64,000 bases of DNA from Escherichia coli (GTDB taxonomy: Bacteria > Pseudomonadota > Gammaproteobacteria > Enterobacterales > Enterobacteriaceae). Numbering within the stretch: position 1 is the first letter of the stretch; every line of letters begins with the position of its first letter. Below the pieces are notes generated by a model. The model was given only the letters and a program-made list of their open reading frames with translations, did no database searches and had not been told where the DNA came from. Both the position numbers and the translations under genes were made by a program. The stretch lies in assembly GCF_003334785.1 (NCBI RefSeq), contig NZ_QOWV01000001.1; one strand, given 5' to 3'. Shown here piece by piece: positions 10,784 to 30,158 of the stretch.

Positions 10784-10803
10784 TACCCAATTTTTCTGAA
10801 TCT

Positions 10804-10830
10804 AAAAAGCGCCTGCGGGCGCTTTTTTTG
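10804..10830 (+). terminator. Intrinsic terminator of serS
   Basis: agcgcc-tgcg-ggcgct hairpin followed by TTTTTTT, 21 bp after the serS stop. Confidence 0.85.
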
Positions 10831-10837
10831 TCTCCCT

Positions 10838-10851
10838 TTGATACCGAACAA
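10838..10851 (+). promoter_or_regulatory. FNR box candidate for dmsA promoter
   Basis: TTGAT-accg-AACAA matches FNR consensus TTGAT-N4-ATCAA with one mismatch; dmsABC is an FNR-activated anaerobic operon. About 170 bp upstream of dmsA ATG, implying a long leader. Confidence 0.55.
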
Positions 10852-11021
10852 TAATTACTCCTCACTTACACGTAATACTACTTTCGAGTGAAAATCTACC
10901 TATCTCTTTGATTTTCAAATTATTCGATGTATACAAGCCTATATAGCGAACTGCTATAGAAATAATTACACAATACGGTTTGTTACTGGAATCAATCGTG
11001 AGCAAGCTTGAGTGAGCCATT

Positions 11022-20402: not shown

Positions 20403-21143
20403 TTAGAACATTACCTTATGACCGTACTGCTCAAGAATGCCTTTCACGCGTTCCATGGTCTCTTTCTTCGGTGGTTTAACACCGTCGAGTTTGTACTCTT
20501 CACCCATTGCCACCCATTTGTGTTTGCCCAGCTCGTGGTAGGGGAGAAGCTCGATTTTCTCAACGTTGCCCATATCACGGGTAAATTCACCGAGGCGATG
20601 CGCTGAATCGTCATCGTCAGACCAGCCTGGGACAACAACGTAGCGGATCCACACCTTCACATTTTTGTTCGCCAGATATTTAGCGAACTCCAGCGTGCGG
20701 TGGTTGGAAACTCCAACCAGATTTTGGTGGATCTCGTCGTTCATCTGTTTGAGATCGAGCATTACCAGGTCGGTTACTTCCAGCAGTTCATCAATCACCG
20801 GATCGTAACGACGAACAAAACCGTTGGTGTCCAGACAGGTATGAATGCCTTCTTTTTTGCAGGCGCGGAACCAGTCACGAACAAACTCAGCTTGCAGGAT
20901 TGCTTCACCGCCGGATGCGGTAACGCCGCCGCCGGAAGCGTTCATAAAGTGGCGATAGGTCACCACTTCCTTCATCAAATCTTCAACGGTAACTTCTTTA
21001 CCGCCATGCGTGTCCCAGGTGTCGCGGTTATGACAATACAGGCAGCGCATCAGGCAGCCCTGGAAAAAGGTGATAAAGCGAATACCTGGGCCGTCTACGG
21101 TTCCACAGGATTCAAAGGAGTGAATGCGACCAATAACTGACAT
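20403..21143 (-). CDS. pflA: Pyruvate formate-lyase activating enzyme (radical SAM)
   Basis: 246 aa from ATG 21143 ([23 protein letters not shown]...); radical-SAM CxxxCxxC motif CLMRCLYC. Track ORF adds 9 upstream codons. Confidence 0.95.
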
Positions 21144-21334: not shown

Positions 21335-23617
<2,283 letters not shown>

Positions 23618-23671: not shown

Positions 23672-24529
23672 TTAATGGTGGTCGTTTTCACGCAGGTAAA
23701 TGACCCAGTATGTCAACCCAACCAACAAACCACCACCGATAATGTTGCCGATCGTAACCGGAATCAGGTTATCAGTGATGAAATTCATCACGGTCAGGTG
23801 AGAAAAATTTTCCGGTGCAGAACCGACTGCGGTCCAAAATTCCGGGGATGCGAAGTCGCGGATTACAATACCCATCGGGATCATAAACATGTTTGCGATA
23901 CTGTGCTCAAAACCGCTGGCAACAAACATCGCGACCGGCAGCACCATAATGAACGCTTTGTCCATCAGGCTGCGGCCAGAATAACTCATCCATACTGCCA
24001 GACATACCATCAGGTTTGCCAGGATACCAAGACAGACGGCCTCAATAAAAGTATGGTGCACTTTGTGGTCGGCGGTTTGTAGGACGTTTAGTCCCCATTG
24101 ACCATTTGCGGTCATATACTCGCCGGAAAGCCACATTAAAAGTACAAACAGCAGTGCGCCGACCAGGTTGCCAAAATAGACATTTAGCCAGTTTTTCGCC
24201 AACTGACCCCAGGTGATGCGCCCACTCGCCTTAGCAACAACAATCAACACGGTGGAAGTAAAGAGATCGGCTCCGCAGACAACACAAAGAATCAGCCCCA
24301 GAGAGAAGCAAATGCCGCCAACCAGTTTTGCCATGCCGAAGGGCATTGTGCCTGTGCCAGTGGTTGCTGTGATATAGAAGACGAATGCGATTGAGATGAA
24401 AACACCGGCGGTAATCGCCAGATAGAAAGTCTTAAGCGGATGTTTCGTTGCTTTATAGACACCCGCCTCTTCGGCCACTTTGGCCATTGCAGCAGGAAGT
24501 AAAAGATCAAAAGGGTTGTCAGCTTTCAC
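23672..24529 (-). CDS. focA: Formate channel FocA (FNT family)
   Basis: 285 aa from GTG at 24529 (fMet-KADNPFDLLLPAAMAKVAEEAG...). Track ORF 23672..24703 extends 58 codons upstream into the promoter region; GTG start follows established annotation. Confidence 0.9.
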   Translation of the reverse strand: MKADNPFDLLLPAAMAKVAEEAGVYKATKHPLKTFYLAITAGVFISIAFVFYITATTGTGTMPFGMAKLVGGICFSLGLILCVVCGADLFTSTVLIVVAKASGRITWGQLAKNWLNVYFGNLVGALLFVLLMWLSGEYMTANGQWGLNVLQTADHKVHHTFIEAVCLGILANLMVCLAVWMSYSGRSLMDKAFIMVLPVAMFVASGFEHSIANMFMIPMGIVIRDFASPEFWTAVGSAPENFSHLTVMNFITDNLIPVTIGNIIGGGLLVGLTYWVIYLRENDHH

Positions 24530-24589
24530 ACTAACTCTCTCTTTATTAAGTCGGCGACGAGATACTAACAAAGCATTATAGATGAGAAA

Positions 24590-24603
24590 TTGATATAGAT
24601 CAT
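24590..24603. promoter_or_regulatory. FNR box candidate in focA-pflB promoter region
   Basis: TTGAT-atag-ATCAT, one mismatch to TTGAT-N4-ATCAA, 61 bp upstream of the focA start in a very AT-rich 400-bp regulatory region. Confidence 0.6.
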
Positions 24604-24934
24604 ATCTCGCCTGGCTTATAGGCCCGTAACTCGCATGGTTTTTATGCAAATACGGAGTAAATATTTGATTATCCAAATAAAAATAAATTTTAAAAATTAA
24701 CAAATGAGTTGAATTTTTTCCGCATCCTCCGCTAAAACAGTTAATTAAAAGGGAGCATCAGGCGAATAAAGTAACAATATCGATCGTATTTATTAAATAC
24801 AAATTACCGATATTTAACCTTATAATTACAATTATTTTATTAATGCAAATATATGTAAAGCGGGGCATTAAAAAAACGCCCCGTAATATAACTCAGACTA
24901 ATCATTAAGCCTACATTGCGTAGGCTATTTGATT

Positions 24935-26695
24935 TTATTTTGCCCAGAATGCTGCTTTGGCGCGCTGCAGCTTTTCGTAGGCCTTCAACAACGACTGATG
25001 TGCAGCAAACGCGTGCAGATCGCTATCTACCGGTTGCAGGCCGTAAAACGCCGCTTCGCCGCTCATTGCCGCACTGGCGGCTTCTACGGCATCTGCGCCG
25101 TACATGCGAACAAACGCATTCAGATATTGCAGCGGCTGGCGATCTTCTTCCTGTGCCAGTAATAACAACGTTTGCAGGCAGCGATAATAGTTGGCGCGTT
25201 CCGGACTAAATACTGATGAGTTAAACTCCATCGTCCATTCGGTCCAGACCAGAGCCTGTTCCAGATCGCCACCAGCCAGCGCCAGCATGGCTTTTAATTC
25301 ACCGATACGCAGGGTGTACCAACCGTTATCCGACCCGGTCGCCAGACCCAACAGCTCACGCACGCGGGTAAAGTCATCAAAACCTTCTTCATCCAGTTGC
25401 TCGATGAGGTTCAGGTAATCTTCTTTTTCCCACTCGCTGCCTGGTAGCGAAAGAATCGTTTCACGTAAATGGCTGCCCATACTGTTATTCGCGAGCCACA
25501 GATCTTCAGCCGGATAAATATCGGACATGCCAGGCACGATAATACGGCAAGCATAAACGCCCAGATGCTCGTAATCGGCAATATAAACTTCTTTATCTTC
25601 TTTGTTGAAGATAGCCATCAGTGTGGCGAACTCTTCTTCCGTGGTGCCGGAGAAATTCCAGTCCACAAACGGATAATCGGCATCCTGCTTGAACAGGTCC
25701 CAGGAGATTAAACCGCTGGAATCGATAAAGTGCGTTTCGAGGTTGGTATGTTCAGCGACTTCTTCATCATCGAAGGTTGGCGGAGTAAACACATCCAAAT
25801 CTTTCAGGCCACGACCTTGCAGCAGCTCGGTCACGGTACGTTCCAGTGCTACGCCAAAATCAGGATGCGCACCGAAAGAGGCAAAGCAGGTACCGTTAGC
25901 AGGATTGAACAGTACCACGCAAATCACCGGATACTGGCCGCCAAGCGAACCGTCATAAGCGAAGATTGGGAAACCCTCCGCTTCCAGCGTTTCGATGGCT
26001 TCAACTACTGCTGGGTAACGCGCCAGCACGTCTGCCGGGATCTCTGGCAGGCTGATGCTTTCAGCAATAATGCGGTTTTTCACGTAGCGTTCGAAAACTT
26101 CAGACAATCCCTGAACGCGTGCTTCGTTGCGGGTATTACCTGCGGACATACCGTTGGAGACGTACAGGTTACCAATGATATTCATCGGAATATAAACGGT
26201 CTGATTGTCGGACTGACGCGTAAACGGCAGGCCGCAAATACCACGATCTTCGTTACCGGATTGTAGGTCAATCAGCATGCTGCCGGTCAGTTCATTCTCC
26301 GGATCATAAAACGCGCGCAGACGGTCATCGAGCAGCCCTTCTGGCACATCGTCATTTTCGGTCAGTGGGAACCATTTTTCGTTGGGATAATGCACGAACG
26401 GACCGTTGGCGATGGTTTCGCCCAGCCAGAAGTCCGCAAAAAAGTAGTTGGTTGAGAGACGCTCGAAATATTCACCGAGTGCAGAAGCCAGCGCCGCTTT
26501 CTTGGTTGCGCCTTTACCGTTGGTAAAACACAGTGCGCACTCTTTGTCGCGAATATGTACAGACCAGACGTTAGGCACGGGATTCAGCCAGGAGGCCTCT
26601 TCAATCTGAAAGCCGAGGTCTGAAAGTTTTTGCTGGAAGCGAGCGATGGAATCTTCCAGAGCGGCATCTTTGCCGGGGATAAATGTTTGCGTCAT
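24935..26695 (-). CDS. ycaO: YcaO-domain ATP-dependent protein (ribosomal protein S12 methylthiolation accessory factor)
   Basis: 586 aa from ATG 26695 (MTQTFIPGKDAALEDSIARFQQKL...); track ORF adds 11 codons upstream. Confidence 0.92.
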   Translation of the reverse strand: MTQTFIPGKDAALEDSIARFQQKLSDLGFQIEEASWLNPVPNVWSVHIRDKECALCFTNGKGATKKAALASALGEYFERLSTNYFFADFWLGETIANGPFVHYPNEKWFPLTENDDVPEGLLDDRLRAFYDPENELTGSMLIDLQSGNEDRGICGLPFTRQSDNQTVYIPMNIIGNLYVSNGMSAGNTRNEARVQGLSEVFERYVKNRIIAESISLPEIPADVLARYPAVVEAIETLEAEGFPIFAYDGSLGGQYPVICVVLFNPANGTCFASFGAHPDFGVALERTVTELLQGRGLKDLDVFTPPTFDDEEVAEHTNLETHFIDSSGLISWDLFKQDADYPFVDWNFSGTTEEEFATLMAIFNKEDKEVYIADYEHLGVYACRIIVPGMSDIYPAEDLWLANNSMGSHLRETILSLPGSEWEKEDYLNLIEQLDEEGFDDFTRVRELLGLATGSDNGWYTLRIGELKAMLALAGGDLEQALVWTEWTMEFNSSVFSPERANYYRCLQTLLLLAQEEDRQPLQYLNAFVRMYGADAVEAASAAMSGEAAFYGLQPVDSDLHAFAAHQSLLKAYEKLQRAKAAFWAK

Positions 26696-26824
26696 GAAAA
26701 TCACTTTAGTCGTACGGAAAGCGCGCAATAATACGGGTTTTATCTCAAAGGCGCTATCACCGCCGCCATGCCGATGAACTGTTGACTATGCTTTTAGCGG
26801 ATAAACCACGTTAAGAGCATAAAA

Positions 26825-27517
26825 ATGAAGGCGTTCGATCTCCACCGTATGGCATTTGATAAAGTGCCTTTTGATTTCCTTGGCGAAGTTGCACTACGTA
26901 GTCTTTATACCTTTGTACTGGTCTTTTTGTTCCTCAAAATGACCGGAAGACGCGGTGTGCGGCAGATGTCGCTGTTTGAAGTTTTAATCATTCTGACGCT
27001 GGGATCAGCGGCGGGAGATGTGGCGTTTTATGATGATGTGCCGATGGTCCCGGTACTTATCGTCTTTATTACTCTGGCGTTGTTATACCGCCTGGTAATG
27101 TGGTTGATGGCGCACAGTGAAAAACTGGAAGATCTTCTGGAAGGCAAGCCAGTTGTCATTATTGAAGATGGCGAGCTGGCCTGGTCGAAACTCAATAACT
27201 CCAACATGACGGAATTTGAGTTCTTTATGGAGCTACGATTGCGTGGCGTGGAGCAGCTGGGGCAGGTACGTCTGGCGATTCTCGAAACCAACGGGCAAAT
27301 CAGTGTCTATTTCTTTGAAGATGACAAGGTGAAACCGGGTTTACTTATTTTACCCAGTGATTGTACGCAGCGTTACAAAGTGGTGCCGGAGTCGGCGGAC
27401 TATGCCTGTATTCGTTGTAGTGAAATCATTCATATGAAAGCGGGGGAAAAACAATTATGTCCGCGCTGTGCAAATCCAGAATGGACGAAGGCAAGTCGGG
27501 CAAAACGGGTGACCTGA
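26825..27517 (+). CDS. ycaP: DUF421-family inner membrane protein YcaP
   Basis: 230 aa; hydrophobic N-terminal half; C-terminal CxxC...CxxC (CIRCSEIIHMKAGEKQLCPRC). Confidence 0.88.
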   Translation: MKAFDLHRMAFDKVPFDFLGEVALRSLYTFVLVFLFLKMTGRRGVRQMSLFEVLIILTLGSAAGDVAFYDDVPMVPVLIVFITLALLYRLVMWLMAHSEKLEDLLEGKPVVIIEDGELAWSKLNNSNMTEFEFFMELRLRGVEQLGQVRLAILETNGQISVYFFEDDKVKPGLLILPSDCTQRYKVVPESADYACIRCSEIIHMKAGEKQLCPRCANPEWTKASRAKRVT

Positions 27518-27715: not shown

Positions 27716-28804
27716 ATGGCTCAAATCTTCAATTTTAGTTCTGGTCCGGCAATGCTACCGGCAGAGGTGCTTAAACAGGCTCAACAGGAACTGCGCGACT
27801 GGAACGGTCTTGGTACGTCGGTGATGGAAGTGAGTCACCGTGGCAAAGAGTTCATTCAGGTTGCAGAGGAAGCCGAGAAGGATTTTCGCGATCTTCTTAA
27901 TGTCCCCTCCAACTACAAGGTATTATTCTGCCATGGCGGTGGTCGCGGTCAGTTTGCTGCGGTACCGCTGAATATTCTCGGTGATAAAACCACCGCAGAT
28001 TATGTTGATGCCGGTTACTGGGCGGCAAGTGCCATTAAAGAAGCGAAAAAATACTGCACGCCTAATGTCTTTGACGCCAAAGTGACTGTTGATGGTCTGC
28101 GCGCGGTTAAGCCAATGCGTGAATGGCAACTCTCTGATAATGCTGCTTATATGCATTATTGCCCGAATGAAACCATCGATGGTATCGCCATCGACGAAAC
28201 GCCAGACTTCGGCGCAGATGTGGTGGTCGCCGCTGACTTCTCTTCAACCATTCTTTCCCGTCCGATTGACGTCAGCCGTTATGGTGTAATTTACGCTGGC
28301 GCGCAGAAAAATATCGGCCCGGCTGGCCTGACAATCGTCATCGTTCGTGAAGATTTGCTGGGCAAAGCGAATATCGCGTGTCCGTCGATTCTGGATTATT
28401 CCATCCTCAACGATAACGGCTCCATGTTTAACACGCCGCCGACATTTGCCTGGTATCTATCTGGTCTGGTCTTTAAATGGCTGAAAGCGAACGGCGGTGT
28501 AGCTGAAATGGATAAAATCAATCAGCAAAAAGCAGAACTGCTATATGGGGTGATTGATAACAGCGATTTCTACCGCAATGACGTGGCGAAAGCTAACCGT
28601 TCGCGGATGAACGTGCCGTTCCAGTTGGCGGACAGTGCGCTTGACAAATTGTTCCTTGAAGAGTCTTTTGCTGCTGGCCTTCATGCACTGAAAGGTCACC
28701 GTGTGGTCGGCGGAATGCGCGCTTCTATTTATAACGCCATGCCGCTGGAAGGCGTTAAAGCGCTGACAGACTTCATGGTTGAGTTCGAACGCCGTCACGG
28801 TTAA
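27716..28804 (+). CDS. serC: Phosphoserine aminotransferase
   Basis: 362 aa [26 protein letters not shown]...; class V aminotransferase. Confidence 0.96.
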
Positions 28805-28874: not shown

Positions 28875-30158
28875 ATGGAATCCCTGACGTTACAACCCAT
28901 CGCTCGTGTCGATGGCACTATTAATCTGCCCGGTTCCAAGAGCGTTTCTAACCGCGCTTTATTGCTGGCGGCATTAGCACACGGCAAAACAGTATTAACC
29001 AATCTGCTGGATAGCGATGACGTGCGCCATATGCTGAATGCATTAACAGCGTTAGGGGTAAGCTATACGCTTTCAGCCGATCGTACGCGTTGCGAAATTA
29101 TCGGTAACGGCGGTCCATTACACGCAGAAGGTGCCCTGGAGTTGTTCCTCGGTAACGCCGGAACGGCAATGCGTCCGCTGGCGGCAGCTCTTTGTCTGGG
29201 TAGCAATGATATTGTGCTGACCGGTGAGCCGCGTATGAAAGAACGCCCGATTGGTCATCTGGTGGATGCGCTGCGCCTGGGCGGGGCGAAGATCACTTAC
29301 CTGGAACAAGAAAATTATCCGCCGTTGCGTTTACAGGGCGGCTTTACTGGCGGCAACGTTGACGTTGATGGCTCCGTTTCCAGCCAATTCCTCACCGCAC
29401 TGTTAATGACTGCGCCTCTTGCGCCGGAAGATACGGTGATTCGTATTAAAGGCGATCTGGTTTCTAAACCTTATATCGACATCACACTCAATCTGATGAA
29501 GACGTTTGGTGTTGAAATTGAAAATCAGCACTATCAACAATTTGTCGTAAAAGGCGGGCAGTCTTATCAGTCTCCGGGTACTTATTTGGTCGAAGGCGAT
29601 GCATCTTCGGCTTCTTACTTTCTGGCAGCAGCAGCAATCAAAGGCGGCACTGTAAAAGTGACCGGTATTGGACGTAACAGTATGCAGGGTGATATTCGCT
29701 TTGCTGATGTGCTGGAAAAAATGGGCGCGACCATTTGCTGGGGCGATGATTATATTTCCTGCACGCGTGGTGAACTGAACGCTATTGATATGGATATGAA
29801 CCATATTCCTGATGCGGCGATGACCATTGCCACGGCGGCGTTATTTGCAAAAGGCACCACCACGCTGCGCAATATCTATAACTGGCGTGTTAAAGAGACC
29901 GATCGCCTGTTTGCGATGGCAACAGAACTGCGTAAAGTCGGCGCGGAAGTGGAAGAGGGGCACGATTACATTCGTATCACTCCTCCGGAAAAACTGAACT
30001 TTGCCGAGATCGCGACATACAATGATCACCGGATGGCGATGTGTTTCTCGCTGGTGGCGTTGTCAGATACACCAGTGACGATTCTTGATCCCAAATGCAC
30101 GGCCAAAACATTTCCGGATTATTTCGAGCAGCTGGCGCGGATTAGCCAGGCAGCCTGA
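28875..30158 (+). CDS. aroA: 3-phosphoshikimate 1-carboxyvinyltransferase (EPSP synthase)
   Basis: 427 aa [35 protein letters not shown]... Confidence 0.96.

Follow-up and report, generated by a model that had tools for sequence, protein, structure and literature searches.

Watson et al. 2020 (PMC7550191) found that Met82 of uL16 carries a backbone thioamide, situated near the peptidyl-transferase centre, and Rice et al. 2026 (PMC13063428) have established through gene deletion and reconstitution in vitro that this thioamide is installed by Escherichia coli YcaO (EcYcaO). Specifically, the thioamide is lost in the ΔycaO strain, and purified MBP-EcYcaO requires Na2S, MgCl2 and ATP to thioamidate full-length uL16, sulfide being a non-physiological sulfur source in this reaction (PMC13063428). 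EcYcaO binds uL16 with a Kd of about 10 nM and neither binds nor modifies peptides of 11-24 residues; the folded protein is recognised without a partner or leader peptide, and the orthologues from K. pneumoniae and P. aeruginosa behave likewise on uL16 (PMC13063428). The ΔycaO strain grows like the wild type.

Here we describe the ycaO gene in a 64,000-nucleotide stretch of E. coli DNA (the window), covering, from the sequence, gene identity, domains, active-site residues, acidity, likely terminator, absence of partner genes and synteny pattern. In the preliminary description of this DNA ycaO was presented as a stand-alone gene next to an anaerobic locus, with the implied puzzle of how a YcaO protein acts without partners. 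This puzzle is already answered, since EcYcaO thioamidates uL16 Met82 by recognising the folded protein directly (PMC13063428), and the gene, its structure, the absence of partners and the uL16 substrate are all published. We are highly confident that positions 24935-26695 hold the ordinary E. coli housekeeping ycaO, a lone transcript whose product thioamidates Met82 of folded uL16 without an adjacent partner, and we found no evidence that contradicts this explanation.

The ycaO gene and its product

The minus-strand open reading frame starts with ATG at 26695 and ends with TAA at 24935-24937, and its translation in the window is a 586-residue protein (Table 1). RefSeq annotation of the identical E. 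coli stretch gives the same ycaO coordinates, and the region, which is 100% identical to E. coli genomes, is present in all 5426 complete E. coli genomes. The product is 100% identical over 586 residues to crystallised E. coli YcaO (PDB 4Q84/4Q85/4Q86), and its sequence is that of the nucleotide-bound crystal structures. It scores 917.2 bits on the NCBIfam equivalog model for EcYcaO (NF040716, "YcaO_for_S12"; cutoff 700) and 574.8 bits on the YcaO superfamily model TIGR00702 (cutoff 75.65). An alternative TTG start at 26728 (597 residues) was rejected: the extension falls in a conserved promoter-like block that carries indels in other genera, and the crystallised protein begins at the ATG. For the same reason, i.e. 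promoter-like DNA with indels between genera 5' of the ATG, the reading frame cannot extend far upstream.

Table 1. Positions of the features in and around ycaO (window numbering)
Feature	Position	Strand	Description and basis
ycaO coding sequence	24935..26695	-	586 codons and TAA; PDB identity, NF040716 score
YcaO ATP/Mg-binding catalytic domain	25523..26521	-	residues 59-391; Pfam PF02624, E = 4e-75
YcaO_C (TPR-like) C-terminal domain	24953..25477	-	residues 407-581; Pfam PF18381, E = 3.5e-65
First hairpin after the stop	24908..24926	-	7-bp stem AGCCUAC/GUAGGCU, 5-nt loop; lacks a U-run on the ycaO strand
Second hairpin	24861..24883	-	CGGGGCGUU/AAUGCCCCG, 9 bp with extension; likely intrinsic terminator of ycaO
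Sigma-70 promoter-like site	24831..24859	-	TTTACA-17-AATAAT, just past the second hairpin; sigma-70 scan; belongs to focA-pflB, not ycaO
FNR-like box	24590-24603	.	TTGATATAGATCAT; focA regulatory region, context outside ycaO
Conserved block 5' of the ycaO start	26709..26758	-	GATAGC..AAAACCCGTATTATTGCGCGCTTTCC; read as the ycaO promoter

Residues S71, E75, E78, N187, E199, E202 and R286, which we take from the EcYcaO structure paper to form the ATP/Mg2+ site, are all found in the encoded protein. Among these, E202 alone is confirmed by Rice et al. (PMC13063428), who report that E202A lowers activity; E202 and the 12 interface residues that they mutated are found here at the published numbers. 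The C-terminal domain serves in dimerisation and is a possible uL16-binding surface (PMC13063428). Moreover, the protein is markedly acidic, with a calculated pI of 4.38 and 92 acidic versus 42 basic residues, in agreement with the acidity (pI about 4.4), complementary to basic uL16, that Rice et al. take as the mark of uL16-directed YcaOs (PMC13063428). Identity ranges between 81 and 99% among 80 Enterobacterales loci and is 67% to a Pasteurellaceae cluster representative.

Neighbourhood, transcript end and upstream region

The genes around ycaO are ordered pflA, pflB and focA (all on the minus strand), ycaO, and then ycaP, serC and aroA (plus strand), and each of the 5426 complete E. coli genomes has ycaO in this place, flanked by focA-pflB-pflA and ycaP. 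The placement of ycaO between ycaP and the FNR-controlled focA promoter region, given in the preliminary description, holds. The ycaO-focA and ycaO-ycaP spacers (405 and 129 bp, respectively) hold no enzyme-size reading frame, and no gene, tfuA included, separates ycaO from the neighbours identified. In the 80 Enterobacterales loci the gaps on either side of ycaO measure 114-573 bp and therefore leave no room for a partner enzyme. Genes for E1-like, ThiF-like, dehydrogenase or TfuA proteins were absent from the ycaO flanks of these loci, as were an E1-like/Ocin-ThiF partner, a dehydrogenase and a Cys/Ser/Thr-rich precursor peptide from both the window and the 80 loci, and E. coli lacks a TfuA homologue (PMC13063428). 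That ycaO stands alone, as had been claimed, consequently holds for the window and for the 80 loci.

The ycaO-focA-pflB-pflA order is kept in 72 of the 80 loci, where serC/ycaP and focA-pflB-pflA account fully for the flanks, and it was also noted across Gammaproteobacteria by Watson et al. (PMC7550191). Of 79 loci, 34 lack ycaP. Five loci retain ycaO and showed no focA-pfl match over about 6 kb of sequence downstream; in three of these the downstream genes were identified as LacI/ABC-transporter genes or ycaD-serS-rarA. Likewise, the neighbours of four distant ycaO orthologues are unrelated and include no TfuA, ThiF or OsmC gene. Since ycaO stays where focA-pfl is missing, the linkage looks like inherited backbone synteny and not a functional operon.

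Both hairpins that had been reported after the stop lie on the ycaO-sense strand, and the gene looks monocistronic, as had been suggested. The 98 nt 3' of the stop fold at -30.1 kcal/mol compared to -17.05 ± 3.04 for 200 shuffled sequences (z = -4.29), and none of the shuffles was as good. The sequence of the first hairpin is poorly conserved between genera. A stem-loop followed by a T-rich tail (at least 5 T among the next 9 nt) is present no more than 170 nt from the ycaO stop in 68 of 72 loci from related genera, with 45 distinct stem arms, and the hairpin at 24861-24883 is likely the intrinsic terminator. Its U-tail is degenerate in E. coli (CUUUACAUAUAUUU), and some read-through from ycaO into focA may occur. 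The TTTACA/AATAAT hexamers beyond it are listed for the focA/ycaO spacer as a constitutive RpoD promoter that drives focA-pflB (PMC3946193). As a bare motif the FNR-like box does not exceed chance (3 matches in the window, 2.4 expected), but it lies within a spacer block that is conserved to at least 90% across 72 loci; it is the sole such box in the area, 330 bp past the ycaO stop and inside the focA promoter.

The small reading frames in both spacers were also compared, as had been proposed, and neither a conserved one attributable to ycaO nor a partner gene emerged among the 80 loci. From 72 ycaO-focA spacers 540 reading frames of at least 12 aa were clustered. Three E. coli frames on this side were rejected: two (36 aa, 24868..24758; 21 aa, 24905..24840) survive intact in 2 of 72 loci, the aligned length being no multiple of three in most loci, and a plus-strand one (21 aa, 24635..24700) likewise survives in just 2 of 72. 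A fourth frame, of 12 codons (24603..24565), is kept intact by 61 of the 72 loci, but it overlaps the FNR box and the focA promoter; its retention is explained by the regulatory DNA that it overlies, and it was rejected as a ycaO partner. On the ycaP side (26696-26824) recurrent strings, e.g. VRKARN(N/D)TGF, fall in differing frames between genera because the promoter block there is conserved as DNA and not as coding sequence. No Rfam match with E ≤ 1 was present in 24500-26900; two Rfam hits at gathering score lie elsewhere in the window, both far from ycaO.

In the block 5' of the start conservation reaches at least 90% for the core motifs (ATAGC, CGTAT, GCGC and TTT) in 81 sequences, among which are genera without ycaP. 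The block was not flagged by the sigma-70 scan and has no Rfam match; we infer that it is the ycaO promoter, with a putative -10 element TATTAT (26728-26733) followed by a GC-rich discriminator (26721-26727). Such an arrangement may place ycaO under growth-rate/ppGpp control together with ribosome synthesis, a weaker suggestion than the OsmC reading given below; direct evidence for ppGpp control of ycaO did not turn up in the literature search.

Proposed mechanism and alternative explanations

EcYcaO is an ATP-dependent enzyme that activates the peptide backbone; it binds folded uL16, encoded by rplP about 2.5 Mb away and outside the window, through a large acidic surface and draws the uL16 loop into its active site. 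By analogy with other YcaO enzymes, a sulfide equivalent would then attack the Met82 backbone carbonyl, and the resulting hemiorthoamide would be O-phosphorylated by ATP, with elimination of phosphate yielding the thioamide. EcYcaO can do without an adjacent partner or precursor, its substrate being not a leader-bearing peptide but a conserved protein whose tertiary structure is recognised, and since uL16 is encoded elsewhere in the genome ycaO has no neighbouring partner.

RefSeq and NCBIfam name EcYcaO an S12 methylthiotransferase accessory factor, i.e. a helper of the radical-SAM enzyme RimO in methylthiolation of Asp88 of uS12. In the work of Strader et al. 2011, in so far as it is summarised in PMC13063428, YcaO co-purified with tagged uS12 and uS12 modification fell from 99% to 84% in ΔycaO. 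It is this drop, as given in that summary, on which the S12 accessory-factor annotation rests. This modest change might come about indirectly, via altered ribosomes; RimO by itself modifies a uS12 peptide in vitro, modification is abolished completely in ΔrimO, and AlphaFold3 interface scores for EcYcaO with uS12 (0.31) and with RimO (0.16) are not confident (PMC13063428). Together with the position of rimO, which is not near ycaO in the window, these data make a RimO accessory function improbable, and the database name is probably misleading.

The synteny with focA-pflB-pflA, in Enterobacterales as well as across Gammaproteobacteria (PMC7550191), would be expected if ycaO were tied to anaerobic formate metabolism and co-regulated with these genes. 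We consider such a tie very unlikely given the five loci that retain ycaO without a focA-pfl match and the different neighbours of distant orthologues. A terminator-like stem-loop and separate focA promoters (PMC3946193) also lie between ycaO and focA, focA-pfl is transcribed independently of ycaO according to Sawers 2005 as cited in PMC7550191, and Watson et al. saw the thioamide in ribosomes of aerobic cultures (PMC7550191). As to the question raised earlier of anaerobic regulation, there is no FNR-like box 5' of ycaO, we found no sign that ycaO depends on anaerobiosis, and a literature search on ycaO, FNR and focA added nothing to the work of Watson et al. (PMC7550191). It is even harder to credit that ycaO marks a cryptic RiPP/thiopeptide-type cluster with an overlooked precursor and partner, despite the flagging of ycaO loci by genome-mining tools, the thiopeptide BGC predictions in a 2026 study of E. 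coli C91 in which the siderophore signal was down 61% in ΔycaO (PMC12837419), and the 12-codon frame kept in most loci. EcYcaO scores 43.7 bits on the TOMM cyclodehydratase model TIGR03604, far below the cutoff of 219.25, the flanks of the 80 loci hold no fitting enzyme gene, the small frames directly 3' of ycaO in E. coli are almost never intact elsewhere, and the retained one overlies the focA FNR box and promoter. The degree of identity within Enterobacterales and to Pasteurellaceae is, moreover, what one expects of a housekeeping enzyme whose substrate is fixed and not of a RiPP enzyme.

An orphan YcaO without precursor or partner can accordingly be a protein-modifying housekeeping enzyme and not a cryptic natural-product gene, and ycaO provides a calibration point for other orphan YcaO genes.

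Comparison with other YcaO systems

EcYcaO shares ATP-dependent backbone O-to-S exchange on a folded protein with the methanogen YcaO that thioamidates a McrA glycine (TIGR03266; e.g. MJ1094, PDB 6PE3) and is usually paired with TfuA. The two have a common core (EcYcaO residues 175-306 align at E = 7e-4), but EcYcaO reaches only 39.1 bits on TIGR03266 against a cutoff of 365, carries the additional YcaO_C/TPR domain of about 175 residues and has no tfuA nearby; the methanogen enzyme takes short McrA peptides whereas EcYcaO requires folded uL16 (PMC13063428). With the azoline-forming TOMM cyclodehydratases (SagD/BalhD/TruD/LynD type) it has in common the ATP-binding YcaO fold, with weak matches to the TruD and MusD structures, and the presumed mechanism of amide O-phosphorylation. 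Unlike these, EcYcaO comes without an E1-like/Ocin-ThiF partner, RRE, precursor peptide or dehydrogenase. Azoline-forming YcaOs have a Pro-rich C-terminal motif, whereas EcYcaO ends in ...AKAAFWAK.

A closer likeness was reached by a representative-sequence search, the first protein search having given close Enterobacterales relatives only. In Halobacteriovorax and relatives an OsmC-like domain is fused to YcaO (TIGR03549), and the portion made up of YcaO and YcaO_C shares 54% identity with EcYcaO and scores 867 bits on the equivalog model of the latter (cutoff 700); the fusions are acidic (pI 4.4-5.3) like EcYcaO. They differ by about 147 extra N-terminal residues that make up the OsmC-like domain. 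Pfam scanning found no OsmC domain in EcYcaO, which scores 682 bits on TIGR03549 (cutoff 900) and matches profile positions 148-722 only. All 120 of 120 fusion proteins have the same three cysteines in the OsmC-like domain, and two of these cysteines align with the canonical OsmC/Ohr cysteine pair; these features suggest that the fusions contain their own persulfide carrier or redox guard. Because close EcYcaO orthologues are fused to a domain with three invariant cysteines, it is conceivable, if rather unlikely, that in E. coli an OsmC-family thiol protein acting in trans is the physiological sulfur donor for uL16 thioamidation. We found no discussion of the fusion in the literature searched, and it gives the question of sulfur delivery in vivo a definite candidate that can be tested.

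Finally, the protein encoded here is UniProt P75838 (PDB 4Q84/4Q85/4Q86), in which Rice et al. 2026 recognised the uL16 Met82 thioamidase, with no difference in gene, locus or neighbours.

Identity and genomic setting of ycaO

The stand-alone gene beside focA-pflB-pflA is well characterised, and its function is already known, having been published in 2026. Its product, EcYcaO, carries the Pfam domains YcaO (residues 59-391) and YcaO_C (residues 407-581), scores 917 bits against the NCBIfam equivalog NF040716 ("YcaO_for_S12", cutoff 700), of whose group it is the founding member, and is identical at every residue to the crystallised protein (PDB 4Q84/4Q85/4Q86). The coordinates and gene identity given in the preliminary description are correct. 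E202 and 12/12 published interface residues are present at the numbers of Rice et al. 2026 (PMC13063428), and the calculated pI of 4.38 fits the acidity used there to recognise uL16-directed YcaOs. The window is E. coli chromosomal DNA. The 2.6 kb around ycaO is 100% identical to many complete E. coli genomes, and the ycaO region was found in 5426/5426 complete E. coli assemblies. Neighbour coordinates were taken from the annotation of an identical K-12-type record and converted to window positions (Table).

Table. Features of the ycaO region and other matches in the window
Feature	Position	Strand	Source or remark
STnc130 sRNA	10797-10931	-	Rfam match at gathering score, 140 bits; between serS and dmsA
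FNR-like box	10838-10851		adjoins STnc130 match
pflA	20403-21143	-	annotation of identical record
pflB	21335-23617	-	annotation of identical record
focA	23672-24529	-	annotation of identical record; GTG start
12-codon ORF, MIYINFSSIMLC	24603..24565	-	small-ORF comparison
FNR-like box, TTGATATAGATCAT	24590-24603		focA/ycaO spacer
Sigma-70 promoter-like site, TTTACA-17-AATAAT	24831-24859	-	promoter scan; directly after second hairpin
Second hairpin	24861-24883	-	3' of ycaO stop
First hairpin	24908-24926	-	3' of ycaO stop
ycaO	24935-26695	-	annotation of identical record; ORF of 586 residues
Upstream block, GATAGC..AAAACCCGTATYATTGCGCGCTTT	26709-26758	-	directly upstream of ycaO start
ycaP	26825-27517	+	annotation of identical record
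serC	27716-28804	+	annotation of identical record
aroA	28875-30158	+	annotation of identical record
ES036/CssrF sRNA	54458-54500	+	Rfam match at gathering score, 53 bits; between gloC and aspC

Candidate transcription signals on either side of ycaO

The two hairpins noted earlier are present within 98 nt 3' of the ycaO stop, and this segment folds well below its shuffles (-30.1 kcal/mol vs -17.05 +/- 3.04, z = -4.29; 200 dinucleotide-preserving shuffles). In a consensus scan the first hairpin is terminator-like only on the plus strand, where no gene runs towards it, and of the two the second is more likely to terminate ycaO transcription, despite its degenerate U-tail in E. coli. The comparative data settle the question of a ycaO terminator: a stem-loop with a T-rich tail (≥6 bp, ≥4 GC pairs, then ≥5 T in 9 nt) lies at most 170 nt from the stop in 68/72 related genera, with 45 different stem arms and, in Enterobacteriaceae, the same preceding TATATTAC anchor. 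The hexamers of the sigma-70 promoter-like site are listed by Shimada et al. 2014 (PMC3946193) as a constitutive RpoD promoter of focA-pflB, so that terminator and promoter stand nearly back to back. Within the spacer, the 200 bp proximal to the promoter, FNR-like box included, are at least 90% conserved and the ycaO-proximal part is not. Together, these observations bear out the monocistronic look ascribed to ycaO, and indicate that most of the focA/ycaO spacer is focA regulatory DNA. In E. coli KFu015, a river-water isolate, this spacer (window equivalent 24530-24934) carries an IS1A element (locus L082, 984-1681).

Upstream, the core motifs of the block next to the ycaO start are at least 90% conserved among 81 Enterobacterales sequences, and the block is kept also in genera that lack ycaP. 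From its sequence it reads as a -10 element, TATTAT, with the GC-rich discriminator TGCGCGC after it; it gave no Rfam match and was not flagged by the sigma-70 scan. Discriminators of this GC-rich type are a hallmark of promoters that respond to the stringent response or to growth rate, and the block might place ycaO under such control. Our literature search returned no direct evidence for this.

Synteny, partner genes and small ORFs

In a comparison set of 80 Enterobacterales loci from one scan of genome contigs (YcaO 81-99% identical; tblastn with the window's proteins as queries) the order serC-(ycaP)-ycaO-focA-pflB-pflA is kept in nearly all. ycaP is missing in 34/79 loci. Gaps measure 312-573 bp to focA, 114-373 bp to ycaP and, in the 34 loci without ycaP, 194-472 bp to serC, and a partner enzyme cannot fit into them, in agreement with the lack of a visible partner gene noted in the preliminary description. 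In two Citrobacter loci (L005, L006) the serC-ycaO gap is ~445 bp, longer than the median for the remaining ycaP-less loci (~310 bp); ycaP would by far not fit into it, and it could represent unrelated sequence or what is left after a deletion.

The small-ORF comparison revealed no conserved ORF attributable to ycaO. Among 540 small ORFs from 72 downstream spacers, the two nearest ycaO in E. coli (36 and 21 aa) are intact in just 2/72 loci, and the sole widely kept one is the 12-codon ORF (61/72 loci). Since this ORF spans focA promoter DNA and its ATG falls within the FNR-like box, regulatory constraint is the simplest reason for its conservation; divergence by codon position is 0.11/0.065/0.19, which over only 13 codons does not decide the matter. 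Apparently conserved upstream peptides were rejected as coding because their reading frame changes between genera, which places the conservation at the DNA level. No Rfam family matched around ycaO at E ≤ 1.

Five loci with ~6 kb of downstream sequence gave no focA-pfl match and keep ycaO; three of these were examined, and downstream of ycaO they carry either a LacI-type regulator with ABC-transporter genes or ycaD-serS-rarA. As the contexts of more distant ycaO orthologues are also unrelated, the position next to focA-pfl is best taken as backbone synteny and not as a functional link. Watson et al. 2020, who pointed out this synteny, likewise judged the functions unrelated, because they had prepared their ribosomes from cells grown aerobically and because focA-pfl has its own, independent transcription (PMC7550191).

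Thioamidation of uL16 and comparison with other YcaO families

In the same study a ribosome map at 2.0 Å showed a backbone thioamide at Met82 of uL16, and YcaO was named the prime candidate for it (PMC7550191). In the proteome-wide AlphaFold3 screen of Rice et al., 3/4403 proteins scored confidently (uL16, uL29 and YcaO itself), and of these uL16 alone had a loop in the YcaO active site; the thioamide is missing from delta-ycaO ribosomes, and thioamidation is incomplete with ATP-site variants (PMC13063428). Purified MBP-EcYcaO thioamidated full-length uL16 only with Na2S, MgCl2 and ATP; binding (~10 nM) required folded uL16, 11-24-residue peptides failed, and the K. pneumoniae and P. aeruginosa orthologues behaved in the same way (PMC13063428). 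The substrate is a conserved protein whose gene, rplP, does not lie in the window, which explains why ycaO has no partner or precursor nearby. The earlier designation as an S12 methylthiotransferase accessory factor goes back to a small drop in uS12 modification (99% to 84%); in vitro RimO acts on its own, and the interfaces predicted for YcaO with uS12 and with RimO are not confident (PMC13063428). Lower siderophore production by a delta-ycaO strain, reported in 2026 (PMC12837419), is most simply read as pleiotropy.

A search of representative proteins identified P0123, a 729-aa OsmC-YcaO-YcaO_C fusion (Pfam; locus L085, 6001-8190) with 54% identity across the whole of EcYcaO. It passes TIGR03549, the "OsmC domain/YcaO domain" family (1153 bits, cutoff 900), against which EcYcaO scores 682 bits over profile positions 148-722, and its YcaO part passes NF040716 (867 bits, cutoff 700). 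A follow-up search listed 120 distinct fusions; the named carriers are Halobacteriovorax, Bacteriovorax and related Bacteriovoracaceae/Bdellovibrionales, and most others are metagenomic contigs. C50, C59 and C112 of the OsmC part are invariant in 120/120, and in an alignment with OsmC-family proteins of solved structure C50 and C112 fall on the canonical cysteines. The YcaO part of the fusions is as acidic as EcYcaO (pI 4.4-5.3). We found no discussion of this fusion in Rice et al. (PMC13063428) or in the literature searched. Judged from domain composition, the OsmC domain is possibly a built-in sulfur-relay or redox partner; the fusion hints that an OsmC-family thiol protein could deliver or protect sulfur, a reading that we consider rather improbable.

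A TOMM cyclodehydratase identity was rejected for EcYcaO (43.7 vs cutoff 219; no partner, no precursor). According to Rice et al., TfuA is absent from E. coli (PMC13063428). EcYcaO works like the YcaOs that thioamidate methanogen McrA, yet falls outside their family (39 vs cutoff 365) and differs from it in acting without TfuA, in having the extra YcaO_C domain and in needing a folded substrate.
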